Positions 1,438 to 40,794 are shown, numbered from the stretch's first letter. The stretch is 64,000 nt of DNA from Leptogorgia sarmentosa (GCA_964658305.1 OZ210884.1:1736001-1800000), one strand, 5' to 3'. Numbers and translations are program-made. Notes: generated by a model from the sequence alone, not told the origin.

Positions 1438-1932
1438 TATGATATTATAGAATGTTCATATTAATTATGTGATGCGAATTGCCAAATCTTCCATATTCAT
1501 TGCTTATTTTTACTCGCTAGACAAATCGACAAACGATTTGGTGTCGTTACATCATTCCAAGGCACTTACGTATCCAATCGATGGTCAATTGAATTGTCTA
1601 ATGATACTAATGTTGGTAGGTTTGTCTAGATGTTTTCAATTTTTTTTCACCCCCTAAATTGTTTTTAGTGTTTATGGTGAGACTGTTGAGACTGTGAGGT
1701 GTAATTATAAGGGAATTATAATTAGTAAAACAGATTAAACGTTCGCTGACCAAGATGCCCTTGTTGTCCCTTGTTGTCGTTTTAGAGCTTTGGGCATGTG
1801 TGGATGCGTCGATGTCTCTGTGTTGTACCACAGAAATGTTTCAGTCTTTCTTTATATTTAATTAATACGCTCCTTTCAAAGGCTCCATAATTAATATGTA
1901 GCTATATACCCAATATCTTCATATAGCTACAG

Positions 1933-2291
1933 CTCAAGGAAGTTCTCCAACGCCGGCGTCGTCCTCAAACAGCAGCATCGAGATCGTTGTAGGAATCACA
2001 GTTGCTGTTGTGGTTGTTGTTTCAATAGCGAATGTTGCCGTTTGTCTCCTGTTGAAACGGAAAGCAGATAAAAAGAGCACGGGAATAATGGCGAAGCAGG
2101 AAAACAATGGCAATGGCAATGGCAACGTTTCATCAGAAACCAACGAATTAGAAGAAATACCTAATCCAGTAAGTGAGTACAAAGAACCATCAGCATATGC
2201 ACAACTTGACAAATCCAAAAGAGTTCCAATTGATGAAAATTATGAAAGTTTGGGTGCCGTAAATCGTGTGGAACTGGAGACCAATTCTTAA
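1933..2291 (+). CDS. Terminal exon of a single-pass membrane protein (TM helix + tyrosine-motif cytoplasmic tail); upstream exons not identified in the window
   Basis: Acceptor tacag at 1928-1932, phase 1. Reads QGSSPTPASSSNSSIEIVVGITVAVVVVVSIANVAVCLLLKRK (hydrophobic stretch + basic stop-transfer), then YKEP, SAYAQL, YESL, stop at 2289-2291. Close paralog at 22300-22652 with the frame preserved through a 6-nt indel. Confidence 0.7.
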
Positions 2292-3859
2292 AAGTATCCT
2301 TTCAAATGTGGCGACGTTGCCAACGAATGCACCCTTCTGGAAAGCATACGTCAGCAAACTCGAAAACAAGGTCGAATCGCTAAGCCGTAGTAATAAATAG
2401 AATTTTTTTTTAGTTTGACCAACGTGTAAACAGAGACGGCAGAGAATGTCAAATATGTTAGATTTTATAACATACTGAGTTTTTGCTAACTGCAGCAAGC
2501 TTGCAGCATAGAAAAAATCAGGCTGTACTAATAAATATACTGGCGATATGATTCAGCCTCGATCGTTTTTAGGTTTACCGACGTATACTTTCCGAAAGAG
2601 TGCATTCGGTTAGGAAAATAGCGTATTAGTTAAACCGTCAGGAGCATTTTTTAAATCAGTGTGATAATGGTTCGCTAAAGTTTAAGAAAAGTTGAAGCAA
2701 ACAGGACAATTTTTCGGGTTGTAAGATTTTCTTGTTTATTTTTGAATAAGCATTTTCCACAGTTATTAATGCATGGTGCAAGAAATTGCTAATAGACATG
2801 TCAAGAATGTGTTAGAGGAGTTATGAATTTCACCATTTTGTGTCCTAATCATTTTTGGACATTTGTGAAACAACAATTAAGAACTATGTATTTAATTAAT
2901 AGTTGACCAAAGTATTTTGCCTACGGTGCATGATTGAGATAGAAAGCAGGCCTTTTGCTTTGCTAACCAAATTAGCCTAGCATTTTCTACGAAAGCCGTA
3001 AGTTTCAGGCAAAAAATTGATTAATTGTATGTTGTCGATGTATTTATGTAACTAGAGATGGAGGCTCATTAGGTGTATGGCATCATAGACATTTCGTAAC
3101 CGGTAAATGTTGTAAATCAGAAATATAATGGACAATTACCATTATACACTAACTTCTGAACTGAAAAACAAAAACGGGACTTCTGGAAGAACATTATTGA
3201 TATTAGTAGCAAAATTGCAAAACAATTATTTGGAATTAAAATTTAAAGGTATCAACCCGCTTCCTACATGATCTTTTCGGTTTGGGCATTTTGTAATGAT
3301 CGGAATGACACAAGTCGCAAGGGGTGGTGGGAGGGGAGGTGCAACAATTTATATGAGGGGCAATAATCTGTATTATTATTTATTTCAAACAATTCAAGAG
3401 TTTTGATTGGTTAAGAGCAGTGCAATAAATCTTCATATACGACATTATGACGTAATTATGTCGTATATTGAAAATTATACGACATTATGACGTCGACTAA
3501 TTTATTCTGCATATGCCAAAAGCGGAAAAATAGTGGGAAATACAAATGGCTTCCTCAAAGAAAGGTTCTTCCAAACGTTTATATTGAGTTGAAATAAATT
3601 TATTTGATTTAATTCTTGTTTAGCTATGTTGAATCACGTCTGACTGCGACCTTGAAATGTACAACAGCTATAAGAACATTTTCTCTTGTAGTCTGATTGG
3701 CTTATTAAGTCTTGCGAACACTATATTATTGTTCTATTTCCAATACCTTGCAATTGCGTGTTTTTGCAAGCGCTATATACAAATAAATAATAAAACAATT
3801 ATTGAATTCGGTCCTCGTAGGATATGCAGAATTATCCAGGCCTCGGTTTGTGTTATAAC

Positions 3860-4869
3860 CAGGGCCGTAGCTAGACATTTATAGTTGGGGGGGGGGGGGG
3901 GGTGTAGGCCAAAAATTTCCGAATGACAAAAAAATTTTCCGAATATTTCATGGCATACCGAAGCCACGAATGTGTTTACTATCCGGACGAAGCAATAAAT
4001 TATATAGATATTAATAAAAGCCGTTTTTTATTAGTCGCACCCAGAATACCAATCTATCATAATCAGAGAGGCCGCAGAAGCATTTAGATTGTGTAGTGGC
4101 ACTGTGGCATTGACGAAAGGGAAACTTTTGTATATGACCAAAATCAAATTTTATATGGCCCAGAAAACTGTAGCCCAGAAAAAAGGCCCTTTATAATTTT
4201 TACTTTAAAAAGGGGGGGGGGGGGGAGGCACATGCCCCTATTGCCCCAATGATGAAGTAAAAATGTAATAAGTTTCACAACAATGCCATAATGGCTATTG
4301 TTTATTGCGGCAGCAATTGTATATGTTCACTAACGTTTCCACGTAATGAAAACGCCATTCGTGCAGACATGACAAATGTCACAAATTTATTCTTCGGTTA
4401 GTTTTCATAAACCATTTATCAACTAGCATGTCTATGTCCAAACTGCCAGTAATATCTTTTTCGCTGGTTAAATGCTACAATTTACGTTATTATCCACACA
4501 GATAAAAATTACCAGATTCAAAGTTTCTAAGGGTTTTTTGAGAGAATTAAGTCAATTATTGACCAAATACAAACAATAAAAATAAAATACGCATATCTTA
4601 CGCATAGACATATTACAGAGGTAACAAACCGAAAAAGATCTACCGATTTACGATTTTTAAATTGTTTTCCATGTAAATGCCATGATTTCGTAAATCAGTT
4701 TATACTGACTCTTTCTGTAATATTTTCTCTGTTTAAAAATTAAGATTCCGTTATACCTTTATTTCCGTAATTTTCCGAATGGCCAACCCGATTTTCCGAA
4801 TATGTTAATTATAGAAAAGTTGGGGGGGTTAGCCACCCCCCAATACCCCCCCCCCTCGCTACGGCCCTG
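3860..4869. mobile_element. hAT-like MITE
   Basis: TIRs CAGGGCCGTAGC...GCTACGGCCCTG with an exact 8-bp TSD GTTATAAC (3852-3859, 4870-4877); inserted at the centre of a palindrome (3793-4937). Confidence 0.85.
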
Positions 4870-7800
4870 GTTATAACACAAACCTCGGCCTGAATAATTC
4901 CTCATATCCTACTTGGCCTCATTCAATAATTGTTTAATATTCCAATTTTAAAGCACAAGAAGTTCAGTTCGAATTTGGATAAATATCAATGGAATGGGTG
5001 TATGAGACCTCGAACATGAACATGCCATTTCCAATGATCTAGACATCTCCAATCAAATATTCAATGTGGTTTCCTACTGTCAGGATTTAAATGTACCGTT
5101 TTGAAATTGACATCGATCACGAGCGTATAAATATATTTGAACTCCAGTTTTAACAGGGGCCGTGAGTTGGTGAGTAAAAAAATGTTATTACGGATTAGAA
5201 TGATTGACATGATAAAGATAATTATTATATGGTTTTTCAAAATTCTCTATTCTGATTGGTTGACAAGCGGTCCGTAAAAACACATATCCGGACCTTGGTC
5301 CGCAATTTCCGTATCTGGACCGGTGTCCCGGATGTCCGTTCATCAGGCGGGAAATTTCGCTTTGCAAACCAAAACTATTTTTGCTTTTTAATATAATTGT
5401 AGTCATTTTCCTGGACGCTGATTAGCTAAAAAGCTTCAACAACTGTGCGAATTAAACATTAATTACACATGCAGGTGTGTAATTAATTTTTCGAATACCA
5501 CGGTTTCGAGCGGTAAATTTAAAAACAAGTAAAACAACAGTAAAATTTTTGTTTCTCGTATAAATTTGCGATGGATTTTGATTTGTTTGATATTAAAAGG
5601 AAATTACACTTGTTCTCGAAGTATTAATGAAAAAGAAATATTTCGCCAAACACGCGTGCAATTTTTCATTAATACTTCTCGAACCGTGTAATTTCCTATA
5701 CTAATTTTCAAACTTAGAATTTAAAGATAAAAATTTCATACAACTAAATTGTTTTTATTGAGCATGTATATGTCTGCAGTACTCTTACCCAGCAAAACAG
5801 ATGATAGCCGATTTAATTCGGGCGAAAAGCATGCAATTCTTATGCTCAAAGACTCAATTCACCCATATAAAAAACGAAGTGTTGACCTCGTTTGTTCGGT
5901 TAATAAACTTTAGTGCCATTGTAAATGTAATATATAGTTTGCAGTTTTGTGTACTCTGATTTCTAAAGCGAATAAAATGATGTTCTCCATACGCTTGACA
6001 GTCTTTCTCAGTTGAAGATTTAAGATTTATAGTTTAAGTTTTGCAAAGCACAACTTCTTTGATTTGCATGAACTATCTTACATGTATGTATATGACATAA
6101 GACACGATGACGATCAATGACACTATCAGAATATGTTTTGACAATATTATATGGATTTGTAGCCAGTTCTCAACTTAAGTTTGTAATTCAAAAATAACAG
6201 AAAAAAAAAACGATAGAAAAAACAAAGGAACATAAAGGGAAAAATGAAAAATTTGTCAACCAATTTAATTATTACGACACTTGTAGACATACTTACTAGT
6301 TTTTACGAAGATTTACTAGTCTGTGAATATGATTAGAAGCTAATAATAAAATGTGTTTTTTTGTTGTATCTATTTTGGACGTTTGGACCAGTGTTTTTCA
6401 TCTCGGTGAGCAAATGTGGGCCATTCCACGCAATTGAATCTAATTATCGCAAATGCATTGTAAATTTAGAAACCAAAATGTTGTGTGAACTATTTACAAG
6501 AACATTTTTATAAAACGAAAGGTAATCTGAATCAAATTCATAGTATATCGCTCTCTCTCTCTCTCTCAAAAAAGAAATTGTATTATGGCAAAAAACTTAT
6601 TTTAAAAATTTCTTTTCTAAATTTGAACAAAATTTGCACGGCAGCAGATTTGATGGAAACACGGTGGATGCCACATTTGCAATTGCAATTTTCGCCGTCT
6701 GCATGTTGCCAAAACTCACTATTTCCTGAGCTACTGTGCCAGGGACAGCTCGTGAGTACAACTTTCAGAAAACGCTGAAAAAGTACCCTTTTGTTTGAGG
6801 TGAATGGCCCTTTTTGTATTCCCTTTTCGTATTTACGTGCCAATATTTAATTGCTTTTTTCACCGAATCCGCCCCCCCCCCCCCGTCTCACCCAACTCCA
6901 ATGTCATTCCTGCGCCCTTGAAGATATTTTACATGTAATATATAGAGTGCAGTCGTGAAATGTTTCCAGTGAGTGAACAACGCCTGTTAGTCATGTAGGC
7001 TTGCAACATTAAAATTCAAAAATGGAAAGGTGTGTGTATCGTGATTTTCTGTGGTGGCAAGAAGCAATTCCCGATACTATTAATTACCATATTTGAGAGT
7101 CGAGAATATTTCACAAAGTTAATTAATTTTGAACCAAATTTTGAAAACACTAATTGTACAATTAAAATAACATCCTTTTTGTAAGAAGAACTTTTACCTA
7201 TACCCGGGCAGCTTTGTTACCTGATTTATATTACCTTCCAACATGTACTCTTGCGATATCTGTCTCCAAAGCTGTTCTAATTAACGCTGCGGCACCTTGG
7301 TTCTGTTTTTATTTTTCTGTAAAACACAGCCAAAACGCGTACAACTATATTCCGAAGTATTATATTTCCGAAAGCGATCCAGCAACCTCTGCTGCGGCGT
7401 TCCCAAAACTTGTTCATACAAACTGGTTAAAGAATTACTCGTTAAAAAATTAAAAAATTGCAAGTTTGAAATTGTTCGAAATTTTTTGTAATGCCTTTTA
7501 TAGGTTTTACCTTCCAATCAAACAGGTTATATTTTTTTGAGGGGGAAAGGGGGGGGGGGGGGGAGGGCACACACGGTATACCAAATTAAGTTAGCCTTCT
7601 CTTAACATTATAAAACTTACCTGGATGCAAGAGCTGGTTTAGTTCTTACTTCTTACATTGTATTAAATCAAACACCGATACTTCAGTTTTCGATACAACC
7701 GATATATTCATATGTCATAAAAACGCATGCACATGGTACATCAAATTTAGATAAATTAGATGTCAACCACAGTTACAGAGATAAAATTAAAACTATGTAC

Positions 7801-7975
7801 CTGCAAACTAACTACGTAAATATAATTATTGTACGTGGATTGCAAAATTATTGAAACAACTACGTATTAGTCCTACTAGAGACTAATCTTAAAGTGAGAC
7901 AAAATAAATGTTGATTGATTATACTGGCCTTTCAAAGGCGTTTCGTGCACATACTGTTTGAACCTATACTCTGTT

Positions 7976-10900
7976 TTAACGAACAAAGATGTACCCCATA
8001 GCCTGCACTTCCTTGTCGCCATTGTCAGCATTACAAGAACTAAAAGCGCTGTTGCCGCAGCTGTTGACTATGTTCCTCCGGCTGCAGTATCTTCGTTGGC
8101 TGGCATCGATTGCACCAAATCCTATGAAGGAATCTGCTGTCCGACAATCTTTCTCATTATTTCCTATAATGCCGATTCGAACCCGTGCGTGATACTTGTC
8201 ATCAGCAGCAACATTGAACCCTTGCCTTCCACAATATATTTGAAGTGAGGAATCGTCGTACAAAGATTTCCATGTGTTGCGAGGGATGTTAGTTGCGCGA
8301 AATTTTCCGTCTGCCAAGATATCGTACAAAGAATTTGCCTTGTAGCTGATTGGAATGAAACGAAGTGAATTGTTAACTCTCATTCCAACACAAAGCTGAG
8401 TAAACGGTGTGCTCCAGAAAGTTGCCAGTTTAGTTTCCGCGTGATCTAGTCCGGTTTCTCTACAGTTTATTGAGAAACTTTCCATATTGCTCCAGTACCG
8501 AGATGAATAAGAAAATGTTTCCTAAAAAAACGAACAGCACCTTGTTGAATATGTGAATAATATTTATAATCAAATAGAAGGCAAAATTACAAAAATCTGA
8601 TTGGCTAATGAGGAGGGCATTCTTTCTTAATTCCGGTGGCAAAATTACTTGGCTGAAATGCCCTGATTGCATGGCTGAACTTTCAGAATGTTTTTGTGTT
8701 CATTTTAGGTCGGACATTTAATCGCTTCCTCGCAGTATTTGTCGCGTGTGAAATCGACAAATTGAATTATTTTCAAGCAATTTGGTAAATATTTAAGCAA
8801 ATTTATTGAATAATTATAAACCTGGTACCCGAGACGGTTATTTAAGGGTCCACAAAACATTCTGGTTTCCCGAGGGCCCAGTCAATAAGTGCTTTATTAT
8901 ATACCAATCGTCAAAGAAACGACAAAAAAAAGCGGAACAAGTGAACAAAAATACACGAAATATTTTGTTTTGAGATTCACAAAAAATTCGCGCACTTTTC
9001 AGGTCGTCCAAAGGTCGCGTCTTCACGTGATGGCGCACGTGATTATTTTGTTGTTCCCCAGTGAATAACGTATTATCTCCCTCTCTTGCTGATGGGAGGG
9101 AGACAGTCTAATTTCGTCACTCTCACGTGACACGCTCCGACCAATGAAACACAAGAAAAAGGAAACTTTGAGGATTGGTATATAATAATTATCACTCATT
9201 TACTGAGACCGAGGGAAAGATTGTTTTTTGTGGCCCCGAGACCGCCGTTGTTGCCCGAGGCGAAGCCGAGGGCAACAATGGCGGTCGAGGGGCCACAAAA
9301 CACAATGTTTCTCGAGGTTTCAGTAAATAAGTGTTTTGTTATATAGTTTAGTGTCAAAATATGAATGAATTCACCGGTTTAATACTGGAGTGAACTTTGA
9401 AATAAAAAAACAAACATTAAACGGGGACGCCTTACGCCGTAAATGTTCGATAAATTTGAAAAACATCGTACGATTGAATGAACTTTGGACTTCACGGTTG
9501 ACGCGCATGCGCATTATGCCCAGTTAATTGTTTCCCGGTCAATAATTTTTTGATTTTTGACCGGTTGGCGAACATGACGTTTTGTGGACCGGCACGTGAT
9601 ACGGTTTTGTCCAATCAGAAAACAGGAAAATTGAACTTTGACACCAACTATATAACAATACTAGAATATTACTAGAATATAATTGCATTGAGCATAGAAT
9701 TCTTGATTTGAGTAAGGTGGGCGAGGGATTGGTAGTCATGTAATTTTGATTTTTGATCGTTGGATTTTGCAAAAATTATACTGTCGACGTGACTATGCAT
9801 TGTCTATAATTTAAGTTATTCAATTACTTTTCGAAACTATCTATCTATTATCGTTTTTTGTCTTTTATTTATTTTCCTTCTAAACAAATTAATAACTCGC
9901 AGTGCTTGTGTCCTGCATGTACAAGCCACCATTTTATACATTAATTCGTTCCGTTACATCTCATTCCTGCGGGCCATATGCATGCATGTGCCCCAAAAGG
10001 ACATGCTCAACCTTGGTGTTTAACAATCACTAACAAATACACAGAGCGATGAATAGTCTATGTGAGTGGATATATGACTACTTGAAATCGTCTCATTCAA
10101 TGAAATAATTATGAATAACCTTGTTTCCGTCGATTTTCATCACCATTGTCCATCCACCGCCTGAACATCCTTCTATTGGTGTCATATGACAATAAACGTT
10201 GGTGAAATTTGTGGATGTTTTAGCTTTAATACGATAGACACCATCTTGGGCCTGCCTGAAAAGTCGAATCATTAAAAAACTAGTTGCAACACAGCAGCCT
10301 TACAATAGAAGAATGACATTTGCCACGTACAGACCGGGCTTTAAAACATGTTTAACATAATTAATTCTTTGAAAGTTTGCATGGTGCCGGTGATGTTAAT
10401 ATTAATTTATAAAGTTTGTAGTTTACACCACGTAATTTCATTATTATTATATTATTATTACTATAAAAAAATTACGTGGTGCAAACTAGAAACTTTATAT
10501 AAATATTTAATATAGCTGCTGTCAACTTTGCGAACTGTTTCCTTTTTTCTATGGTTGAGCTAGCTATATACCGTAGAATGGACGAAAAATTCCGAAATTT
10601 AAATTTTTAAAAAGCCAGCCATCGTTCACCCGTTAAACAAAGACCTCAACGGGTAGTACCCGATATTTCTCAATTGAGAACATGGGTAATGCCCACGCTG
10701 GACTATCGTCTAAGTAGCCTGGCCTGGTAAATTATGAATAGTGATTGCCCGGGTCTATAATCATATGCATTTAGCCACGCCAGAGTGGTGAGCAGCGAGC
10801 TCGATTTAGCTCAAGTGGTAAGGCGCGCGGTGCGTGCGTTACAGTTCTATAGTTCAAGCCCCAGTTCGACACATTTTTTCAGCGTTGGTGATGAAAACTT

Positions 10901-18111: not shown

Positions 18112-21100
18112 ATGAAAGGAACAAGCGTTCTGGATTTTCCTTTGATCCTTCTTTATGTTGGAGTGTGAGTATACATGCACGTGTATTAAATTTATGATGT
18201 GATGTATGTAGCCAACGGCAGAAATAGCAGCTTTCAATAATGGGCTTACAGTATGAGTAATAAAACTGCGTGCTCATCCTAATGTGTTATATAATTACTT
18301 ATTTCTAAATACTGTAATTTCGAAGCCCTACATTGCTTCTAGTTGTAGAAAACCTAGTTGGGTTTAGGTCACTGATAGCTATTTGATAATCACCTCGAAA
18401 TCAGTATAAATAATTGTATTAATAATCAACAATTAGATTATGAGCTCGAGATTTCTATGAGGTGATAGTTGATGAGGGCGAAGCCCGAATCAACTATCAT
18501 CTTGTAGAAATAGAGAGTGAGACTGTTTAAAGTCATACCTACACCTATATACACTGCTAAAATCATGCTAGTATAGTATGAGAGAGAGTATGAAATGAAA
18601 CTAAGCGATTAGGATAGCAGCCAGACAGTTTTTCCTCGTTTGATGAACAACGGCGGCATTCAAGTGCAATATTATTTGACATAGGTCTGCATAAAGGGGT
18701 TTCTGTAAAGAACGGAAACCGAAACGACCGAAACCGGAAAAATTTTGTCAGTATATTGTGCGTGCTTGAGCATCTTAATCTATACATAATTAAGAGTATT
18801 CCACTACTTTCTGATGGGTTTTTTGTTATCATTGTTCGCATTATCGTTGCATGTAGAATCAGTCTGATCTTCTCTTATAATTGCTAGACTCGTAACAACG
18901 TGGATTTATTAATTCTACGTGTATACCAATTAGACGCTTGCTCAGAGGGTAGCCAGGATTTTTGGCCAATTATACGTAGGGCCAACAATAACCTAAAGGG
19001 GGCCACTCGACTCCTATATAAAAATCGGTGATATGAATCAACAAATATTCACAAAACAAACCCATTGTAAAGTGATTCATTGAACAAGAAAGTGTCTTGT
19101 ATCCATGTTGTGCACGGTGACGAAACGCTCACGTCATGCTTTTCGTACTGTTAGGTAATTCAAATCTTGGGACAATGATTATAACAATAATATATATACA
19201 CAAATATATAACAATGTGCCTTCCTGGTTATCATCATACGGTTGTACATTGTGGTACGAGGTTACATTGCATTGAGGAGGATACCGTGCGTAGCGTGACG
19301 TAAGATTATAAATAGGGGAGGGGAATCTGACGAGGCGCCACGATGGTTGGCGACGTGGGAGAAAAATTTGAACATTCAGGAACTCCTAGATTGCCGGTAC
19401 TTGCCATTGCCGGTAACGGCAATAACGGCATACACTATTACATGATTTCAGACTCTTTAATCTACGTTTTTAATCTACCTCGCCTACAGGCGCTTTTATT
19501 CTTGTAGTGAGTTTTCCCGACAATGGTGATCAGTAGTTTTTGTGTTGAAATTGAAAAAATTGTATCTGTCTTGATCGATTTGGAAGAATGTTTCGTTAAC
19601 GTTGTTTTAATTTATTGTTACGTTAATATTTAAGAGGGAGGCCAACATTCCAGGGGGGGGGGGGTTCTCGTGAGAGAACTTATTAAACAGCCCTCTCGTC
19701 TTAACGTTCCATCCACAGCCCTGCGGGTTCTCCAAGAAAAAAACAGTGATTCATTTTGATACCATAATTGTAAATTGATTGTTGCGTAGAATAAATATCT
19801 CATGTTCTTATTACAGAATCAACTGAAAATTTCCCACGTAGGTAACAGATCTTGTTGACATTAATTAATACGTATATATTTAACAATTCACATATTTTGC
19901 TACTCGCTATCTATCGAGGAATAGATAGCGAGTAGAGTAGCCAATCAAATTGCAGCACTTGCAATAGTATACGAGTATGATTCTACTAAACATATATATA
20001 TATACATATATACAAAACGTATAACAATGTGCCCTCCCGGTTATCACCATAATAGCCTTATGGCAACTCCTGAACTTGGGCACAGGATGTAAGGTTATAT
20101 ATATATATATATAGGTATATATATAGGTTATATATAATTATTAATATATAATTAATTTTATATACAATTAATGATTTTTAGCATCAGTCTTGCCAGCTCT
20201 CTCGATACTGGTGAAGGTGTTACTGAACAAAATACGAATGAAAAGTGCCCTGTTAAGCCACATCTTCAGGAAATAAGATGCCTCTTGTTAGCAATGAAAG
20301 AAATTAACTCCAAAGTGAAATACAAATTGTCCCAAATAAACGGAACATTGTCGAAAAAGGAAGCGAATAAAAAAGGTGAGAACAAAATAGCCCATGTTGT
20401 ATTGCTAAAGCACTCTTGAAACACTTGTTGCATTTTCTTCGCCACAATGCCTAGGAGAATGTAAATTTGCTGTCGCAGTGTAGGGCGTAGGGGCGTCAAT
20501 GTGTGCGTTGGGGGGTAGGGGGGGGGGGGTAGGGTTGAACACGCTACCAGTAAAATGTCATTGCCGGTCTCAAGATTGATTAAACTCATAATAATAAAAA
20601 ATACTAGTAAAAAAAATAAAAATATAAAAATAATAGTACAAATCGTCATATCTCAAATATATATTTTTCCGAATAAAGCAGTTATTGAAAACTTGTTACA
20701 TTAACTTATTTTAGCTCTATAGTGGGTCTAAATTCGCATATCAGTATTGATCGGTCTGATTTCCATGAGGCACCCCCTGCCATATTCGATACTTACGCTC
20801 ATGATAACTCTATCGATCAGATTCGTCATAACGTAGGTTGATAACGAATTCCAAATTAATTGCAACACTTTTTGCACCCAAGAAATGTCCATCTCTCATT
20901 TAGTGAAACTCTACATTATTTGGTAAGTGAGATTCGCATTAATCAAAACTGCTGAAGAACAACGAAAAAATCGTTGGCTCGAGCCGCGGAATTCGAACTC
21001 GCAAGTTTGGGTATCTAGACCGCTGCTTTACGTACAAATTCATCTACCCAGGCAACTGGGATTGGTTGCAAGTCATATCCAATTTAAGAGGATGAAATAT

Positions 21101-22652
21101 TTTCATGACAACTTAACCCTTGTCTTTGAGGATGTCCTGTGGAAGGTGGCGTACTAGAATTTAGTGCCTTATGCCATCTTTCACATGACATGAGTTCACG
21201 GCAAAGTGAACTGTAATGACAATAATGGACAATTATACGATTATCATAATTACTTTATTCATTGTAAAGTTCAGCACATGTGTTCCAATAATTGTTTTAT
21301 TAGTGAAAATGCCATATATACCGATATACGAGTTGTGATGGATCGCTATACAAACGAGTGAGTTTTGATATCCATTACAATGAGTAGATGATAAAAATCG
21401 TGCAAGCGAGCCATCGAGCTGTGAGGTGTAATTATAAGGAAATTATAATTATTCCCCTGTAATTAAAGGGAAATTAATGCAAAAAGATTGTATGTTGCAT
21501 TGTGATCGTTTGGGAGCGTTTTGTTACGCGGCACTTGTATCTGGGACAAGCACTTGAACAAATATTTCCTTTTTAAAATTATTACTAGCAAAATCCTAAA
21601 TAATTCTGTTGATACCCTGAATCATTCACTTTTCAGATATTGACGAACGCCATCACAAGGCTGAATGCATTTTTAGTAACGGAACATTGTATTGTTCTTG
21701 TAACGCTGTTTGTGCAGGAAACGGCACGCATTGTGAAGGTATGTTAAAGTTGTATTAAGCTGTGAAATGACTAGAGACAGCTTCTGCTATGCATCAATGC
21801 AGCCAATGGCGGCCATGTAGGTGTGGCCAATAGAAATCTAGTGTGGTGTTATTGATCCACTAAAACAATTCCTGCAGTTTTAATAAATCGACCATGTGCG
21901 AATAATTTATTTCAAAACTGTGATTTTTTTTCTTTTGAATTTGCCTCTGAATACCAAATCAGATCACGCGAAGGTATCTAGGTGCCTGTGCAAAGCTGCA
22001 CAGAGGAGGCGGTAATGCTGAAACATAGATATTAAAATGATAACGTATTCGTAGTTTATTCTAACTATTAAGGTACAACTACAATGATTCGCCAAAAAAA
22101 GGATTGTCAATTCGGAATTAACCTCAACTTTCACCTTTAAAAACTTATACGGACTGTTTTTAAGAAGTATGTTATATTGTTACTTGCCTGTTGCGAATTT
22201 TGTGAAAAATGCCTTTCTTTATTCTTAATCCTTTTAAATGCTTGAAAATTGATATGTAGCTAGTTGTAAATAGCTATTAGCCAATATTTTCTTATGCAGC
22301 TCAAGGAAGTTCTCCAACGACGGCGTCGTCCTCAAACAGCAGCGTCGGCATCGTTGTAGGAATCACAGTTGCTGTTGTGGTTGTTGTTTCAATAGCGAAT
22401 GTTGCTGTTTGTCTTCTGTGGAAACGGAAAGCAGATAAAAAGTGCATGGGAATAATGGCGAAGCAGGAAAACAATGGCAATGGCAACGTTTCATCAGAAA
22501 CCAACGAATTGGAACAAATACCTAATCCAGAATATGAGTACGAAGAACCATCAGCATATGCGCAACTTGACAAATCCAAAAGAGTTCCAATTGATGAAAA
22601 TTATGAACGTTTGGGTGCCGTAAATCGCGTGGAACTGGAGACCTATTCTTAA
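18112..22652 (+). CDS. Predicted chimeric type I membrane protein: signal peptide + coiled coil + degenerate EGF + TM + ITAM/ITIM-like tail (gene C, 233 aa)
   Basis: Exons 18112-18164 (MKGTSVLDFPLILLYVG, donor GTGAGT), 20182-20375 (...CPVKPHLQEIRCLLLAMKEINSKVKYKLSQING..., donor GTGAGA), 21637-21738 (DIDERHHKAECIFSNGTLYCSCNAVCAGNGTHCE, phase 1-1, donor GTATGT), 22300-22652 (TM + YEEP, SAYAQL, YERL). Phases 2/1/1 are compatible; 702 nt with no internal stop. Confidence 0.65.
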
Positions 22653-25600
22653 AAGTATCTTCTCAAACTCATTAATAATTCATGAGGAAATACACCAATC
22701 GAAAACACACATTTCGTCACGTGCATGAGTTGTGAAACCCCGGTAATAAACCAACAATTGATTTAATAATTGAGAAATTAGATAATAAACGCTTACGCCT
22801 GAGAAGTTATTTCATAAACTTGTGACACGTGTTTTACCGGGGTTTCCAAACCCTTGAGAATAATTGAATTAACTCGACTGTTCACCGCGCGATTTTCTTT
22901 ATTGTTCCCTCGTGTATGTTAAACACTCAAGACAATAAAAACCACTCGGCCGTACCGGCCTCGTGCTTTGATAGCCTTTCGTGCTTTACACACTCTCGAG
23001 AACAATACAAAACGCTTGGTGAAGAGTCTCGTTAATTCAGTTATTCTCGCGCGTTTGGAAACCCCGGTAAAACACTCGCACTCGTTTATGAAATATTACC
23101 TCCCAAATGGCGCGACGTTGCCAACCAATACACTGACCCTTTCGGAAAGCATACGTCAGCAAACTCGAAAACGAGGCCGAATCGCTAAGCCGTTGTAATA
23201 ACTAGAATTTATTTTTTAGTTTGACAAATGTGTAGACAGAGACAGTAGAGAATGTCAAATATGTTACATTTTATAACATACTGTGCTGTTGCTAACTGCA
23301 GCAAGCTTGCAGCATACAGTAAATCTGGCTGTACTAATATAAAGGACTTAATTTTGCCGACGTATACTTTCCGAAAGTGTGTATTCGGGTAGGAAAATAG
23401 TGTTTTAGTTAAACCGTCAGAACCATTTTTAAAATCAGTGTGGCAATGGTCCATTCGCTAAAGTTTAAAAAAAGTTGAAGGAAAAAGGACAATTTCTAAA
23501 GTTGTAAGATTTTCTTGTTTATTTTTGAATAACTATTTTCCTCAGGATAAATGCATGGTGCAAGAAATTGCTAATAGACATGTCAAGAATGTCTTATAGG
23601 AGTCATGAAGTTCACCATTTTGTGCCCTAATCATTTTTGGACATTTGTGAAACAACTAGAACTATGTATTTACAAATAAAAAATTTGACCAAAGTATTTT
23701 GCCTACGCGGTGCATGATTGAGATAGAAAGCAGGCCTTTTGCTTTGCTAACCAAAGTAGCCTTGCATTTTCTACGAAAGCCGTAAGTTTCAGGCAAAAAA
23801 ATTGTTAATTGTATGTTGTCGATGTATTTATGTAACTAGAGATGGAGGCTCATTAGGTGTATGGCATCATTAACATTTCGTAACCGGTAAATGTTGTAAA
23901 TCAGATATAATGGACAATTACCATTATACACTAACTTCTGAACTAAAAAACAAAAACGGGACTTCTGGAAGAACATTATTGATATTAGTAGCAAAATCGC
24001 AAAACAATTATTTGGAATTAAAATTTAAGGTATCAACCCGCTTCCTACATGATCTTTTCGGTTTGGGCATTTTATGACGATCGGAATGGCACAAGTCTGA
24101 AGGAGGGGGCGGGGGGGGGGGAGGTGCAGTAATCTATATGAGGGGCAATAATCTGCCGTCCTGTTACCCAGCAAAACAGGTGATAGTCGATTTAATTCGG
24201 GCGAAAAGCATGAAATTCTTATGCTCCAAGACTCAATTCACCCATATAATAAACGGAGTATTCACCTCGCTTGTTCGGTCAATTACCCCTTAGTATTGTA
24301 CATGTAATGTATAGTTTGCAGTTTTGTGTACTCTGATTTCTAAAGCGAATAAAATGATGTTCTCCTTACGCTTAACAGTCTTTCCCAGTTGAAGATTTTA
24401 AATTTATAGTTTTGCAAAGCACAACTTCTTTGATTTGCACGAACTATATCTTACATGTATATGACATAAAACACGATGACGATCAATGACACTATCAGAA
24501 TATGTTTTGACAATTTTATATGGATTTGTAGCCAGTTCCCAACTAAAGTTTGTAATTCAAAAATAACAGAAAAAAAACGATAGAAAAAACAAAAGAACAT
24601 AAACTTAAGGGAAAAAATGAAAAATTTGTTAACCAATTTAATTATTACGATAATTGTAGACATACTTACTAGTTTTTACGAAGATTTACTAGTCTGTGAG
24701 TATGACTATAAGCTAATAATAAAATGTGTTTATTTGTTGTATCATTTTTGGACGGTTGGACCAGTGATTTTCATCTCGGTGAGCAAATGTGGGCCATTCC
24801 ATGCAATTGAATCTAATTATCGCAAATGCATTGTAAATTTAGAAACCGAAATGTTGTGTGAATTATTCACAAGAACATTTTTATAAAACGGAAGGTAATC
24901 TGAACCAAATTCATAGTATATCGCTCTCTCTCAAAAAAGAAATTGTATTATGGCAAAAAAAATATTTTAAAAATTTCTGTTCTAAATTTGAAGAAAATTT
25001 GCACGGTAGCAGATTTGATGGTAACACGGCGGATGCCACACTTGCAATTGCAATTTTCGCCGTCTGCATGTTCCCAAAACTCACTCTTTGCTGAGCTACT
25101 GTGCCAGGGACAGCTCGTGAGTTCAACTTTCAGAAAACTCTCAAAAAGCACCCTTTTCCTTGAAGTGCCTTTTTCATGTTCACCTGCCAATGCCAATTGC
25201 TTTTCTTACCGAATCCGCCCCCCCCCACGTCTCACCGAACTCCAATGTCGTTCCTGCGTCCCTGAAGCTATTTTACATGTAATACGTAGAGTGCAGTTCT
25301 GAAATGTTTCCAGTGAGTGAACAACGCCTGTTAGTCAGGTAGGATTGCAACGTTAAAATTCAAAAATTGAAATGGTGAGTGAATCGTGAGGATCTGTGGT
25401 GGCAAGAAGCAATTCCCGACACTATTAATTACCATATTTGAGAGCCAAGAATATTTCATGAAGTTAATTAATTAACGTCCATACGAACCAAATTTTGAAA
25501 ACACTAATTCTACAATTAAAATAACACCATTTGTAAGAAGAACTTTTACCTATACCGGGCAGCTTTGTTACCTGATTTATATTACCTTCCAACATGTACT

Positions 25601-26870
25601 CTTGCGATATCTGTCTTCAAAGCTGTTCTAATTAACGCTGCGGCACCTTGGTTCGGTTTATATTGTTCTTTAAAACACGGCCAAAACGAGTACGGCTATA
25701 TTCCGAAGTAGTAAGCTCTAATTTGGATGAAAGCGATCCAGCAACTTCTGCTGCGGCGTTCCCAAAACTTGTTCATACAAACTGGCTAAAGAATTACTCG
25801 TTAAAAAATTAAAAATTGCAAGTTTGAAATTGTTCGAAATTCTTTGTAATGCATTTTATAGGTTTTACCTTCCAATCAAACAGGTTATATTTTTTTGAGG
25901 GGGGAAAGGGGGGGAGGGCACACACGGTATACCAAATTAAGTTAGCCTTCTCTTAACATTATAAAACTTACCTGGATGCAAGAGCTGGTTTAATTCTTAC
26001 ATATTACATTGTATTAAATCAAACACCGATACTTCAGTTTTCGATACAACCGATATATTCATATGTCATAAAAACGCATGCACATGGTACATCAAATTTA
26101 GATAAATTAGATGTCAACCACAGTTACAGAGATAAAATTAAAACTATATACCTGCAAACTAACTACGTAAATATAATTATTGTACGTGGATTGCAAAATT
26201 ATTGAAACAACTAAGTATTAGTCCTACTAGAGACTAATCTTAAAGTGAGAGAAAATAAATGTTGATTGATTATACTGGCCTTTCAAAGGCGTTTCGTGCA
26301 CATACTGTTTGAACCTATACTCTGTTTTAACGAACAAAGATGTACCCCATAGCCTGCACTTCCTTGTCGCCATTGTCAGCATTACAAGAACTAAAAGCGC
26401 TGTTGCCGCAGCTGTTGACTATGTTCCTCCGGCTGCAGTATCTTCGTTGGCTGGCATCGATTGCACCAAATCCTATGAAGGAATCTGCTGTCCGACAATC
26501 TTTCTCATTATTTCCTATAATGCCGATTCGAACCCGTGCGTGATACTTGTCATCAGCAGCAACATTGAACCCTTGCCTTCCACAATATATTTGAAGTGAG
26601 GAATCGTCGTACAAAGATTTCCATGTGTTGCGAGGGATGTTAGTTGCGCGAAATTTTCCGTCTGCCAAGATATCGTACAAAGAATTTGCCTTGTAGCTTA
26701 TTGGAATAAACCGAACTGAATTAACTCTCATTCCAACACACATATGAGTAAACGGTGTGCTCCAGAAAGTTGCCAGTTTTGTTTCCACGTGATCCAGTCC
26801 GGTTTGCCCACCGCCTATTGAGTATTCTTTCTTATTGGTCCAATAAGAGGACGAATAAGAAAATGTCTCC
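22210..26870. repeat. Segmental duplication, copy 2
   Basis: Direct homology to about 1845-8521; for example, ORFs 7958-8248 and 26309-26599 translate identically. Confidence 0.9.
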
Positions 26871-29800
26871 TAAAATACAACAAAATGAACAGTGATAACA
26901 TTTAGAATTAAAGACGCAGTACTAGTAGTTATACAAATAACTACTCTGCGATTCGGACTTGGTTGGGAAAATACCCATGAAGGTTCAGCTAATTGCAATC
27001 GTCAAAAAATGTAATCTCTTTCTTTTACTTCGTACATGATAACCTAGACTTGCTTTGTGTTTCCAAAAAAATAATATCTAACAAAATGTTGCTGTAATGA
27101 CAACAGAAATTCTAAAAGATGCACTCTCGGGAAATTTGTATACACCGCACGAGTTATTTACTATAGCAGCTTAAATTTTTCCATTCTTAGACACATTAAC
27201 TTACCTTGCTTCCGTTTATTTTCATCACCATTGTCCACCCACCGCCTGAACATCCGGGTAATGATGTCATATGACAATACACTTCAGTGAAGTTTGTGGG
27301 TGTTTTAGCCTTGATACGATAGACGCCATTCTCGGCGTGACTGAGAAAATATAAATTTGGGGATCGTTGTTTTATACTCAGTTTGTTAATTGCCCGTATA
27401 ATTCTCATCCCTAGGGATAGCGCTACTTACGGCGGAGGCCCGAAATAGCCTTAGTATCGGTTGAGTATATATTTTATTAATACTAACAATATTATTATGC
27501 CTGATCTCTGTTAATTGTAAATGCACAAGCGTGTTGCAATGGACATTATAACAACTTCAAAAACGCGTAATTAGCAGCGAATTTGTTTCTGGCGATATTG
27601 TTGGGGAAGGAGAAGAAAACAATTTTTCTCCATGATTTTATCGGTAAAATGTCGCAGTATGTATTCAATTACGCCAGGGACTGGCAAGTACCAGATGAAT
27701 CTGTTCAAAACCTACCTAATACTTGCTCTTGTACAAATTCTGTTTCTATATTGGCCCCCTTCACAGAAATAGCCATGGGGCAATGCTTATTGTTTATACT
27801 GTAATGTGATAATTGTTCACTGCATTAAATTTTAATGTCTCGAGCTAAGTATCATAGAGGTAAGAAAGTATCGAATCGAAAGCATTTTAAAGTATCGAAT
27901 CGAAAGCATTTTTTGGTCACAAGCTTATTGTGTTTTACTAACAGGTTAGTAAATACTTGAGCTTCAGGGGCCGGGCACCACGAAAAATCTTGGATTTGAA
28001 AAAAAAACTATTAAAGCCGTGCCTTAGTCAACAATCTTTCATGTGTTTTTCCAAAGAAACCTACTAAAATGGTAGAGTTTGGATTCCGAAATGGTCATTT
28101 CCGGCGATCTAGAGATCCTAAATGTTAAAAATGTTATCGCTCGGCGCCAACCATGATGGCGTCCCGTGAGTTCCACCCCCCCCCCCCCCCCCCCCACATT
28201 GTTGAAAACATTCCTACGTCCAAGTGGTAATTTGTTCAAATTGTGCAAAAATTCAATTCAACTCGAACTCTTAAAGAAGTATCAACTAAATAGCAACAAT
28301 TTTTTGCAACACTTTGCAACAAACATTTTTTTAAATATTATTCAAATGAAATGTGGAAACACCGTAAATGTATTGCGTATGCAATGGAATCGCAATACAA
28401 CAGGAGTCAATTGTTTCAAATACATTGCGAACTTACAAATGGACATTCACTGGAACTTAGAGACTCAAAATTGTTTCCATAATCATTCGTATTTCAACAC
28501 TACACTTCACATTTTCTCAGTAAAAACATTTCAACATCGCCCTCATTTCTCGGCGGCCGCAGTCTTTGAATACGTCATTGCAAACAAAAGGTCATCGCTT
28601 GATTACAATTCAAGTAAGCTAATCGCAGATTGGCTAACAAAATTAAATTGATATAAGCTCATCGGTGAATGGCTATGTGCTAACACATTTTGCGGTGTAG
28701 TAAGGTACGGGACGCTTGAGATAGCAATATACCTGCTTTGAAGATATAAAAACAACAGCGAGGTATATTTACGTTTTAAACAGTGTAATTTTCAGGGATT
28801 ATTCTAACGAAATATTAAAACTTCAGTGGGCTCCAAAACTGTTTGCGTGTGTAGCTGTTGTGAATGCATTTTTTATTCATGAAAAATATTACAGAGCTCA
28901 CATAATGTTTCATGTAAGTGAGTAAGACCTTTACATTACATGCTGCGTTTCGCCAGTTCATGATATATACCCTAAAGTCTTATTGGAGAAGTCTAACCAG
29001 TGGTCGGAACCAAAAATTGAGGTGATAATAATTACATTTTTTTCACGAATATTGGAAACGTGGCAGCAGAAGTAAAAACTCGAATATACCAGTCATTGCG
29101 AAGTTCGTTCGTAGAAATATTTTTACAACTCCAAGAAGTGGCAGCGAATTATCACTCGTAATTTTTAAAGCTTTAAATCTTCATCTTTTTCATCTTGGAA
29201 TTTTACACATTGGAAATTATCAGTCATGCATGGTCGCTTGAAACATATAGCAAAATTAACGGCATTGTTTTCACGATTTCTTGTTATCACCTGTTGAGAG
29301 GTAAAAACTGGCGAACAAATTCTTCCGTTTCTAAACTGCGCCAGGATCAACAAATTTTATGAATCGATCGCCGGAAATGACCATTTCGGAGTCCAAACTG
29401 GACCTTTTTCGTTGGCTTCTTTTGGTATACAAATGTATGATTGTTGACTAAGGGCCGGCCCCCTGGAAACTTAAAATTGGGGGCCCCGTTGCTCCGCCCG
29501 TTTCCAACGTCCCTGCATGGTAATTCCAAAGAAAATTTCTGTTTCCCTATTTTGGCTTGCTATGGTACTGGTTTTGTATTGCTTTAAATACTGCACTCAG
29601 TTCATATTTTCAGGCACAATATTGGTGAGAATGACTACCCTACATCTGCTGTTGCCGGGCTTTGAGAACTAAAAGATATCAGAATTTTTCTTTTCCCGTT
29701 CTAGTTCAGAACTCGTAAATAAAATTCACCTGTTTTCCAATAAGGCTTGATGGCACGATTCGTATGTGGTATCATCTATATAACATAATACATGGTAGGA

Positions 29801-32800
29801 TTGCAAGGTCTGAATGTTTTTCTTTCAGGCAAAAGCATACATGTCATTATATAGTAAGAAATAATTATAAGGTGATATTTTCTTTTATTTTTTTCCGGTC
29901 CGTAACTCCCGGTCCGTAACCTAAATAGAGCTTTCTGATTGGTTGCCGAGCGGTCCGTAACCTACTTTACGGACCGCTCGCATGCATTCTCGTAGATTTA
30001 ATTACAAATATAGCCAATGTTTTTGTTTTTTAAAATTGAATGGCCGCTTATTAAAATATTCAAAACGAATTTAGGCGATAAAGAACACATGAAAGTTCAT
30101 TTTATTATGCTAAGGGATATTTTAGGGGGTATTTACAGCGACAAAAACTCATAAGTATCAACAAAGTCTCATCAGTATGAACAAAACAAAACATTCTCGG
30201 CGAAATATTTCGCTGTCTAAAGCGTATTTTAACCATGTTTGTATCGTGAAACGAACGGGAAAATAAATAATTTTAATAAGTTTACCTTTTTCGTAGTAAT
30301 CTTGAGTGTGAAAGCGTTAATATTGAAGCAAATGCGTCAATTTTGAAGGGTTTTTTCTCACTTCGTCTTGGCTGTTTAGCAGGCATACTTTCGATAGAGT
30401 AGCAAAGTAAACAAACAAACTGATCTCAAAATCTAGTTCGCAACACTGGAATTTTTGACGAATTTTATCATAACATCGAGGGGGAAAAAATAAATAAGTT
30501 ATTTACCATTTAGGTCGGTCCGTACTGGAAAATATTTTGTCTCGGTCTCAAAAACGTCCCTCGGCCTTCGGCCTCGGGCCGTTTTTGAGACCTCGACAAA
30601 ATATTTTCCAGTACGGACCTCCCAGCTGGTAAATAACATATATTTATCCCCAGGAAAATTCATACCTTTTTTACAAGCATTTCTTTGGATCACTCGTTCA
30701 TTTATTTGGTCAACTTTGTTATTCAATTTGGTGATCTCATTTTTCATTGATGACAAAAAGTTTCTTATTTCCTGAAGTTCAGGTTGAAGAGCACAATTTT
30801 TACCAGTCTTACTTCGATGTGTAATACATATTTCTTCATTGGTGCGGAGAGAGATGTCGAAAGCATTGACGCTGAAATAAACAAATGTTTAGGAACTGAT
30901 TATATGCTAACCAATCCGTTTCATTAGATAAAATCAAATATTCTGTTCAATCATGGAGTATGGTAACTATTTTGAGAATAGTCATACGCGCATAAATCAT
31001 ATTGCTACGCGCGTAATAACAGAAAAATTCGTCTTTTACAGTCCACATGTTTGATAACTGGTCACGTAATCATTACCAGAAATTTCAAACATGGTTACCC
31101 TCACTTAAAGTGGCACTGTCATGAAAAAATTGTCTATCTAGTTTTCATTTTAATGAAACATCCTTTCAACATAAGGCATCACTACACTACTATCATTTTC
31201 TCAATATATCGTCTACTTCATAAGATATTCGCCTCTTGAAAATATGCAAATTACACATTGTATCGATTATTATTTCCATGACAGTGCCACTGTGATTCTT
31301 GAGCAATTAATTGTATAAGTTAGTAATGGTTATTCTCAATGGTTTATAACCTGTGCTAAGCCATACAATTCTTTATACAGCCGATAGAGTTCAATTGGCA
31401 GAAACCAAACACGACATATGCATGTTGCGATAAATAGAATATCAAGGGATCTGATAATAAATTTAAACATAGTAACAGCGTAGCAAATCATCATGCATGC
31501 TTGAATGGCTAGAAATTATAACCTGTGAATGTCTTCGCTACATGGCGAAGAATACCGAACACTCATGTGCACAACGTACGTTGACTTAGAAATATTTTGA
31601 GTCAAGACGTGAGACAAGTATTACATGAGTTTCATTGGAGAAACAAACAAATGACTTCCCTAAACCTGCCACTTAAGTAAGATATGTTTGATATTTCAAC
31701 CTTTACAAGATCTAACGATACACAAGGTTTGCAAATATTGCAAGGAATTTGCTTAGCAAGATATCATTTGCTCGATCGTCATTAAAAGCACTTAATTAGT
31801 CTCAATCAATTTTAAAAAGTCAATATGACTTGCTTTCAGGCTGAAATCTCTTTTTCCTCTCTCTCTTTTGGAACCATAGTCCATAGTCACTTTTAATGTT
31901 GATAATGGGTAAATTCTAGAAAGATTCAGCTTTCCATTGGTGACAGGTCTACAATAGTGGATCTTTTATAACAACGAGATCATCGATCGTTTTAACAAAC
32001 CAAGAAAGCCTCGTAGAATCCCGCTAAGTCGAACTCGCTTAATAACTCGAACTCTCCGCTAACTCTAACTAATTAAATACGATTTCGCCTGGATTTGAAA
32101 CGAGGCTGGTAAATTTCGATTGCTTAAATCTCATTAGTCGCAAGCGTAATTTCGATTTAAAAACAACAGTTTAACCAACTTATACACACAGTATAGCTTC
32201 AATTAATAGACCATATTAATTAACAATGGATTGACATTAGAACAGCACTTTCAGCAGTGGCGCCGGCAGGATTTTTTTTTTAGGGGGGGGGGGCAATGAC
32301 CCCTTTTGATATAATTGATCACTTACATGACGCATAATTTTGCTTTTCCACTTTTATTTTTTTTCATTATAAAAATGAAGACTACTATATGGAAAACATT
32401 GGGGGGGGAGGGGGGCAGTTGCCCCCCCTTCCCCCCCCACTTGCCCCCCCCCCCTTGCCCCCCTTGCCCCCTTGCCCCCCTTGCCACCCTTGCCCCCCCT
32501 TGCCCCCCATGCCCCCCCCTTGCCGGCGCCACTGGCACTTTGGGATTCTTTGTTAATTTTTTATTCATATAAAGCACCCGAGTGCAATAAACGAAATTTA
32601 ACACATCCCTCGTTAACTCGAACCCTCGCTAATTCAGTTATAATTCGAACAATTTTCCGTTTTCCTTGAGAGTTGGAGTTAGCGGTGTTCTACTGTTTTC
32701 ACGGCACCATTATTGAATTCACCTATTTAATTTTTTCAAATAATGAGGGCAATCCTGTCTGAAATTTCTTGTAGTGATAATGTAAAGATGCTGAAATGTC

Positions 32801-33494
32801 ACCCGTATAGATGTGTGAAGTGACATAATTTAATAACTATTGAGACGCAGATTTTTGTATGTCACGTATCTCGCGCTTAAAACTCACATTCGTCGAAATA
32901 TAAATTTCAAATGTTGAGGTTTCTCAGTCGACAGACTCACTTAAAAAGTTTGATAGATTCATAATTAATGATATAAAACGAAAATAAAAAAAGGTTTTGG
33001 AGGGTACCCCAGAGAGAAAATTACGTTTGAAATCTTGCATTTAATGTTGAAATCAAGGCTTCATTCATGTTGCGCTGGTTATACGAACATTGATGTTCAT
33101 AATTTTCATATTCCCTTTAGTTTCTCAGACATAGTTTCGAAGATAGCAAACATTTTTATCTAGACAATAATCATCGAACAATTTGATTTTGAGAGGAACG
33201 CCAAAACGATTTCTGGTTTGATCACATTTCAACAAAATACATGATATGGAAAAAATTAACTGCTTAATTTTTGAGAGGGATCATTAGTTAAATGCGATCC
33301 GGAGAAAACCATGGCGAATAGAAAATATCATCAGGTTGCAGGAAAATCTAACACTCACTCTATAATGATTAACTCTGCGTGCATGTATGATGAACATTCA
33401 AAATGCAGAAGAAGAAATCAGTAATTTGGTGTACTCACCTTTCACGATACAGCAAGATCGATGCAAAGAAACCAAGAAGGCCGGCTCTTGTCAT
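26327..33494 (-). CDS. Secreted coiled-coil + fibrinogen-N-like protein, skeletal organic matrix protein 5-like family (paralog B, 328 aa)
   Basis: Exons 33494-33439 (MTRAGLLGFFASILLYRE), 30871-30666 (...CALQPELQEIRNFLSSMKNEITKLNNKVDQINER...), 29775-29730 (TYESCHQALLEN), 27340-27205 (NGVYRIK...VYCHMT...GGGWTMVMKING), 26869-26327. GT-AG introns with the same phases as paralog A; 987 nt in frame. Confidence 0.85.
32255..32534. mobile_element. hAT-like MITE with TTGCCCCCC microrepeats, nested in a Tc1/pogo-like MITE (about 32013-32696)
   Basis: TIRs CAGTGGCGCCGGCA...TGCCGGCGCCACTG; GCACTTT on both flanks (imperfect TSD). Outer element ends GTAGAATCCCGCTAAGTCGAACTC / GAGTTGGAGTTAGCGGTGTTCTAC. 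Confidence 0.7.
32840..33270. repeat. Interspersed repeat family, three copies (about 32840-33270, 42060-42465, 62066-62460)
   Basis: Shared blocks such as TTGAGGTTTCTCAGTCG, CTTAAAAAG and ACAATTTGATTTTG in the same order. Confidence 0.8.
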
Positions 33495-40302: not shown

Positions 40303-40794
40303 AAAGGATAATATAGTTAATATTCGTGCTGAAAACAACTGTGAAGTGGAGGAAATTAATCACGCTGTTGCACGATGCTGCAGCACGTCATGACTGAGGT
40401 ATAACCTTTATCAAGGTCCAATATCCATTTGCCCAATTGGGTTCTGTTGAGGAAATAACTGCAGCCTGACTACGTGAATTTAGCGGGCTAGAAAAGTGAA
40501 TGCTGATACATCATCATCCGGTCACACATTTATATATGTATATAAACAACTGGCCATATTCACAATATATACATAATTATGTATAATTCTGCTTATGTGG
40601 TCACAACTGCTAGTATGCTTTGCGGTGAAACAATGTCTACCAATGACCAGAGCGCGCAAGTAACCATAAGTTCTATCGCTTAAAAATCAGTGAGCGATCG
40701 TGAATGGACTTATTTATTTCGAGCAGCCACGAACAAGTCGGTCGACTGTTTACTGCGAGAACTCGACACCACGCATAAAGATAAGAAAGATTTA

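Follow-up and report, generated by a model that had tools for sequence, protein, structure and literature searches.

Among described systems, the closest to the locus studied here are the animal Cryptons, the attC sites of bacterial integrons, Helitron2 and the small DNA hairpins with GNA loops. Animal Cryptons have abundant non-autonomous copies and no terminal repeats, and no hairpin is reported for them in the available text of Kojima and Jurka (2011; PMC3212892). According to the accessible part of a 2026 review, Crypton transposition has not been experimentally demonstrated, and the same is true of the double-stranded circle model (PMC13565253). The attC site of integrons works by its structure, with bulged bases and one active strand, and replication completes the insertion (PMC4792948). 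On the side of DNA structure, an NMR study describes tandem sheared G.A pairs in the pyrimidine-GA-purine context (PMC10085684), and the GCGAAGC mini-hairpin is nuclease- and heat-resistant, with a Tm of 76.5 C (PMC13037366). C-GNA-G triloops are described as DNA loops (PMC13037366, PMC10085684), and primases and polymerases make use of GNA mini-hairpins (PMC13037366). The loop and mismatch chemistry of this mini-hairpin and of the CGAG block is exactly that of the palindromes reported below; both are known from phage origins, promoters and a human promoter, and no design rule for eukaryotic transposon ends is described in the available portions of these two sources (PMC13037366, PMC10085684). 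Likewise, a GA/GNA single-strand rule was not found in the accessible text of PMC5737381.

The window, i.e., the whole stretch of 64,000 bases that was analysed, is eukaryotic (33-40% GC) with scattered exons. Positions 9179-9345 form an imperfect palindrome with the loop GAA at 9262-9264 and an apex that includes GCGAAGC. GA stands opposite GA at 9257-8/9268-9, 9238-9/9287-8 and 9211-2/9314-5, each time in CGAG context, and the loop reads C-GAA-G. The resulting long hairpin, which defines the family F1, was placed at 9186-9338 with its GA strand on the plus strand. An earlier note on this DNA had described such an apex and GA/GA design for the palindrome at 9193-9333, and the GAA loop and the three GA/GA sites bear it out.

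The F1 hairpin is followed by a spacer of the same unit, S2 (9339-9658, plus strand), which has its own inverted repeat including TATATA at the bounds. The score of this repeat exceeded that of all 300 shuffles, CCAAT and CACGTG are located 54 and 72 bases from the far end of S2, and high depth continues until about 9660. Upstream of the hairpin, the palindrome alignment revealed the right arm of a truncated F1 hairpin (unit 1; 8845-8897, plus strand) and its spacer S1 (8898-9185, plus strand), again with its own inverted repeat, CCAAT and CACGTG. The far end of S1 abuts the hairpin at 9186, which constitutes a natural head-to-tail junction, and S1 is also placed behind the hairpin in the metagenome locus L022. 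Contigs of three of the four public runs pass from the hairpin apex into the arm of unit 1 (joint 9277 to 8845); this indicates that an intact hairpin+S1 unit exists elsewhere and nothing more, and it does not count as evidence for a tandem. A third high-copy module, CCAAT-bearing and hairpin-less in this copy, was delimited at 8568-8813 by depth and by loose ends at 8567/8574 and 8813. The stacking order is the third module, the truncated unit (8845-9185) and the whole unit (9186-9658), head-to-tail. Depth over 8568-9660 was 17,000-195,000 as compared with 150-800 on most flanking bins (run X9), and it was high at F1 in all four runs, where depth derived from run contigs is not equal to copy number. 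The modules at 8568-9660 are abundant repeats.

The stack is read as sitting in an intron of a minus-strand host gene (7976-10262), which is skeletal-organic-matrix-protein-5-like with a weak fibrinogen-domain match. Coding stretches of this gene at 10118-10262 and 7976-8527 flank the stack, and the coding stretch beside it has anthozoan relatives, the closest named one being from Paramuricea clavata (71% identity), which points to a coral, likely an octocoral, as the host. The region belongs to a segmental duplication of two genes (1899-10262 and 22271-27347, 83-91% identical), in which the repeat insertions differ between the copies and which offers paralogous sites for comparison.

All five companion palindromes listed in the earlier note matched their description, and a seventh with one TC/TC site was added at 5585-5713. 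F2 is a short plus-strand hairpin (18451-18511) with one GA/GA site and a C-GAA-G loop, and its 627-base bin showed a depth of 82,732 versus about 150-190 beside it (run X9). F3 (35308-35607, plus strand) consists of the hairpin at 35310-35497, with three GA/GA sites and a C-GAA-G loop, and the spacer at 35498-35607. Loose ends with unrelated flanks were found before 35308 in all four runs (9, 9, 6 and 8 contigs; agreement 0.47-0.50) and loose ends behind 35607/35609 in two, and F3 was shown to occupy many insertion sites. An end-to-start joint of F3 (35607 to 35309) in run X9 may represent a genomic dimer rather than a circle. F4 (29865-30648, minus strand; left end set by eye) is a spacer plus the hairpin 30482-30651, with 2-3 GA/GA sites and a C-GAA-G loop on the minus strand and loose ends behind 30648 in three runs. 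F5 (22659-23098, minus strand) contains the spacer 22659-22807, with CCAAT reversed, and the hairpin 22808-23095, which has four GA/GA sites on the minus strand and a G-GTA-C loop. F6 (3371-4941, minus strand; ends by eye) has the spacer 3371-3790, the hairpin arms 3790-3859 and 4870-4938, two GA/GA sites on the minus strand and no GNA loop; the 1 kb 'loop' of its palindrome (3790-4938) is an unrelated nested insertion. F7 (5220-5713, minus strand; ends by eye) is decayed, with a CCAAT-bearing spacer, the hairpin 5585-5713, one GA/GA site on the minus strand and no GNA loop. As a common rule, the GNA loop proposed earlier holds for F1-F5, where F5 has a G-C instead of a C-G closing pair, and does not hold for F6 and F7. 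In the run contigs, the bins with F2, F3 and F4 were as deep-repeat as F1 and that of F5 less so; the depth of these high-copy repeats in independent runs agrees with the earlier assignment to mobile-type elements.

Other repeats were noticed near these families. A nested element of 1 kb (3860-4869) interrupts the F6 palindrome at its centre. It carries terminal inverted repeats, its target duplication is exact over 8 bases, and we take it to be hAT-like. Very deep further repeats were seen in the public-run contigs at 19860-19990 and 32650-33150; in the former, a small hairpin stands beside a CCAAT box, and contigs of two runs connect this repeat with the 18451 hairpin.

The inverted-repeat alignments of the window were then tabulated for mismatch types. 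GA/GA or TC/TC accounted for 11 of the 31 isolated two-base (2x2) mismatches, after exclusion of the alignments that start at 38700-40310 and 43000-43400, versus 1.25% expected from base composition (p about 8e-14, given independent sites), and the spectrum is thus far from random, as the earlier note had expected. When apices with a triloop and an adjacent 2x2 mismatch were considered, 5/14 were GA/GA plus GNA or the complement; the average over 200 shuffles was about 0.005. The motif was present in 8 of the 28 inverted-repeat alignments, none of which mixed GA and TC, and no site was found in the other 20; the AG/AG-CT/CT control occurred once among the 28. A scan without the long-repeat condition was weak (8/143 versus 0-5 in 20 shuffles). 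The numbers of GA/GA sites in F1 to F7 were 3, 1, 3, 3, 4, 2 and 1, and the GA side lay on one strand per element at 17/17 sites, the same-strand polarity that had been claimed; the context was pyrimidine-GA-purine at 16 of the 17. A weak bias of G.T versus A.C on the GA strand (18/27, p 0.12) was counted over the palindromes with an earlier alignment, in which the F5 centre was misplaced. These results confirmed that the one-strand GA/GA pattern in palindromes is real and statistically strong. By blastn, no match at E<0.01 was obtained among the seven palindromes, consistent with the statement that they are unrelated in sequence. Simple descent from one family was rejected on this basis, and simple recent descent cannot explain the pattern; very old common ancestry, below the sensitivity of blastn, may nevertheless connect the seven sequences.

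The whole element is a hairpin+spacer unit, of which the hairpin makes up one half. Each hairpin with an identified spacer (110-630 bp) forms one gene-less, high-copy unit, and the order on the GA strand was hairpin to spacer in all six window families with an identified spacer. The spacer's own short inverted repeat was significant in 4/7 window spacers, and also in the outside loci L026 and L012, and a CCAAT box was located 42-81 bases from the spacer far end in 6/7. The outer ends are not mutual inverted repeats; F1, F3 and F5 share only a short TA-rich stretch. F5 is missing at a paralogous site near 2297, where no duplication was visible (the paralog is 9% diverged), and with respect to target duplications this one empty site showed none, L017 had a 3-base direct repeat and L026 none. 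No allelic empty site was present among the joints listed from the run contigs. Terminal inverted repeats with a target duplication, which characterize a MITE of a DDE superfamily, were absent in the hairpin+spacer units and present in the nested element at 3860-4869.

In five of six comparisons, the joined ends of a unit, namely the spacer far end followed by the hairpin start, matched the complement of the internal hairpin/spacer junction except for a 2-base excess on the joined strand. The match was obtained for the natural junction 9177-9196, F1 unit 2, F3, F5 and F6, and it failed for F4. For four of the five positives we picked the ends from loose ends, an empty site or by eye, and therefore only the natural junction 9177-9196 is free of choice bias. 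In silico, circular folds gave a continuous duplex across the junction. The end-to-start joint in X9 and the natural tandems (9177-9196 and L012) fit either a circle or self-targeting, between which contigs do not discriminate.

Folding was calculated with ViennaRNA. Compared with shuffles, both strands of the palindromes folded much better (z -7 to -16); the GA strand led by 5.6, 2.9, 3.0, 0.8 and 3.7 kcal/mol in five palindromes, under a model that may undervalue sheared pairs. For the whole F3 unit, the in silico fold gave -88.4 on both strands. The earlier proposal that the elements fold on one strand only goes too far; the GA strand is better by 0.8-5.6 kcal/mol, but both strands fold in silico.

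With this architecture, the window elements were compared with the described systems. The animal Cryptons (CryptonA/CryptonI) have short gene-less copies that far outnumber the parent, lack terminal inverted repeats and target duplications, and occur in cnidarians (PMC3212892); the window elements are likewise short, abundant and gene-less, with no terminal inverted repeats and no clear target duplication. Non-autonomous Cryptons are 353-709 bp long (PMC3212892), compared with 300-790 bp for the window elements. The window elements carry an end hairpin, a feature not reported for animal Cryptons in the available text of that survey (PMC3212892). The integron attC and the CTX phage attP are similar in that sequence-unrelated palindromes share a conserved fold with bulged bases, one favoured strand and stacking (PMC4792948), a likeness that in the window elements is read from the sequence. 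However, attC is bacterial, with one hairpin per cassette, and neither a GA/GA nor a GNA rule is described for it in the accessible part of PMC4792948; in the window elements, unlike attC, formation of the site would require pairing of both ends with the internal junction. Asymmetric inverted repeats with an end hairpin, usually without a duplication, are shared with Helitron2, the transposition of which is single-strand (Bao and Jurka 2013, PMC3627910). Nevertheless, the inner spacer repeat in F1, F3, F4 and F5 is separated from the hairpin end by 150-290 bp, as opposed to 20-30 bp in Helitron2, and in contrast to the TTTT insertion of Helitron2 (PMC3627910) the window flanks of F1, F3 and F5 are not T runs; some flanks of L014-L029 are T-rich. 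Dirs1-like tyrosine-recombinase retroelements possess gag and reverse transcriptase (PMC4157794), neither of which was seen in the window elements.

Our search of the literature on Cryptons and on tandem GA/GNA motifs of mobile DNA, with Repbase Reports, Dfam, subscription journals and most supplements of PMC3212892 outside its scope, returned no description of this design. The end design is apparently undescribed, and the transposon class itself is probably known; individual families may already be catalogued, with the hairpin noted there.

Relatives of the F1 hairpin were found outside the window. They showed 72-83% identity at 16/16 metagenome loci in animal DNA, several of which represent the same genomic site; at least two other spacers were present among them, and all 16 copies were gene-less. 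In seven F1 copies, 16/63 pairs were changed on both sides, a value reached by none of 500 shuffles, although sequence kinship and arm conversion can inflate this count. The second GA/GA site of F1, which lay outside the search pattern, was kept in 7/7 copies and the third in 1/7. L001, L002 and L012, records of a viral collection with low coding content and 30-34% GC, showed this apex again, together with natural tandems and a spacer that bears its own repeat; L012 has the hairpin+spacer layout in a natural tandem with a 3-base excess at the junction. The tandem elements of L012:3465-5454, L001:4747-5850 and L002 are 890-1100 bp long, and a second GA/GA+GAA hairpin lies inside their spacer. 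At L023:590-760, an apex of about 40 bases runs in the opposite orientation to its arms in a flip/flop-like manner, in a single contig that may be an artefact. Without long arms, the short motif was detected in viral DNA at 59 loci on 55 contigs, versus 11 for a single permuted control. A 19-base GA/GA+GAA apex was also found in a dispersed intergenic repeat of soil Actinomycetota (six loci, L032-L037, near position 10001-10025), which has a REP-like look. The GA/GNA chemistry is a general single-strand design, and this group is distinguished by the long hairpin+spacer layout.

A gene for the mobiliser was sought in the ORFs. No recombinase, DUF3504, HUH or transposase was detected in 150 window ORFs (of 205 listed), in 148 ORFs from spacers and loci (of 238 listed) or in 16 long ORFs; the window, spacer and locus ORFs also contained no helicase and no remnant of a reverse transcriptase. 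A recombinase motif scan gave no match, and a protein search with the translation of the hairpin, a weak test, gave nothing. Long ORFs beside the hairpins in L015, L019, L022 and L024 contained host-type domains or none. For a long gene-bearing copy, viral scans with five further family motifs yielded 0, 2, 0, 0 and 59 loci, none of coral type with an ORF upon inspection of the hairpin context, and no such copy was found among the 16 metagenome loci and the six Actinomycetota loci of the genome scan. Rfam 15 gave no match at the gathering score in the 64,000 bases. With no recombinase gene found, the Crypton assignment is made by architecture. Similar hairpin-ended repeats are presumably filed as Cryptons in repeat libraries.

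Our best explanation, to which we give about an even chance, is that the F1 palindrome belongs, as its hairpin end, to a gene-less repeat unit present in high copy. On this view, at least seven unrelated families share the design and are likely non-autonomous Crypton-type transposons, which a putative tyrosine recombinase would move as a folded single strand. From the architecture, we infer a tyrosine recombinase in preference to an HUH enzyme. In the proposed mechanism, the GA strand would become accessible during replication, either as single-stranded DNA or by extrusion, and its folding would start from, and be stabilised by, the mini-hairpin loop and the sheared G.A pairs. Once the ends are joined (circular form), the hairpin stem and the spacer stem would become one duplex across the AT-rich core with a 2-base bulge, and this bulged duplex would rebuild a double-stranded recombination site as in the integron attC (PMC4792948). 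A recombinase acting in trans could then exchange one strand with a TA-rich target, often the end of another element, and replication would complete the insertion without leaving a target duplication. The remnant promoter of the missing gene may be preserved in the spacer end with CCAAT/CACGTG. The broader proposal, held tentatively and somewhat short of an even chance, is that transposition of animal Cryptons and of their gene-less derivatives proceeds through one folded DNA strand. Such elements would correspond, in eukaryotes, to integron cassettes: the choice of strand would depend on GNA mini-hairpins and sheared G.A pairs, a bulged recombination site would be restored when the ends are joined, and unrelated elements could stack in cassette-like arrays.

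One alternative is a Crypton-type double-stranded circle, as assumed in the published Crypton model (PMC13565253), with the GA hairpin as an accessory (a cruciform, a structure for priming or for an origin, or an end signal bound by a protein). The use of GNA mini-hairpins by primases and polymerases (PMC13037366), the frequency of the short motif in viral DNA without long arms (59 loci versus 11 for the control) and the location of the GA/GA sites, which lie 20-130 bases off the hairpin/spacer junction and never inside it, are all consistent with an accessory role. However, the complementarity between the joined ends and the internal junction, with an equal 2-base excess in unrelated families, is left unexplained; such a match matters only if one strand folds back, and it thus counts against the double-stranded circle, which we consider rather unlikely. 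Mobilisation by an HUH enzyme, as rolling-circle or peel-and-paste elements (Helitron2/Helentron-, Replitron- or IS200-like), seems to us distinctly unlikely. The asymmetric inverted repeats, the end hairpin, the lack of target duplication and the tandems do resemble Helitron2 (PMC3627910), and the TnpA of IS200/IS605 reads hairpins in a strand-specific manner (PMC13565253). Against this, the 3' repeat of Helitron2 is located about 20-30 bp from the end and the described copies insert after TTTT (PMC3627910), whereas the window hairpins with a known spacer span about 130-290 bp and the window flanks are not T runs; moreover, a hairpin serving as the 3' end would make the top strand the less stable TC strand, and neither an HUH nor a helicase ORF was found among the window, spacer and locus ORFs.

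The pattern could also arise from a repair filter, by which the arms of ordinary fold-back or MITE-type repeats are homogenised and the sheared G.A mismatches escape correction. Arm homogenisation alone would yield the paired changes (16/63), L023 and L028 suggest arm conversion or inversion, and we infer that tandem G.A pairs would escape repair. Such a filter is very unlikely, considering that other long inverted repeats of the window (20/28 alignments) have no such sites, that filtering on both strands would not fix the polarity relative to the spacer seen in 6/6 families, and that the element ends are not mutual inverted repeats, unlike those of the nested 3860-4869 element with its 8-base duplication. 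That the hairpins act as RNA, as small-RNA precursors or retroelement intermediates, is most improbable. Long stems with paired changes would suit an RNA role, and tandem G.A pairs also form in RNA; on the other hand, the window gave no Rfam match, the F1 strand transcribed by the host gene is the TC strand, the ORF searches showed no reverse transcriptase remnant, and C-GNA-G triloops are described as DNA loops (PMC13037366, PMC10085684).

If the folded-strand reading by a tyrosine recombinase is true, single-strand recombination by this enzyme class, as in bacterial integrons and the CTX phage, also operates in animal genomes. The sequence-independent end design provides a concrete substrate for a purified recombinase, where the ends of animal Cryptons have been reported as featureless in the available text of PMC3212892, and it would allow coral repeats of a very abundant class to be classified by a structural rule. 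If the enzyme is something else, these would be abundant elements with a mobiliser yet to be identified.

Several further features were observed in the window. A palindromic element of 1.6 kb at 38711-40302 has arms of ~700 bases with 97-99% complementarity and zero GA/GA sites. A near-perfect palindrome without the GA grammar is located at 59894-60041, and the adjoining 59747-59841 is a fragment of the spacer S1. A phosphatidylserine decarboxylase gene with a PSDC domain lies at 44057-46407, split around a 7-base microsatellite of 67 copies, and the exons of a Dynamin_N + protein-kinase gene were found at 49949-61544 on the minus strand.
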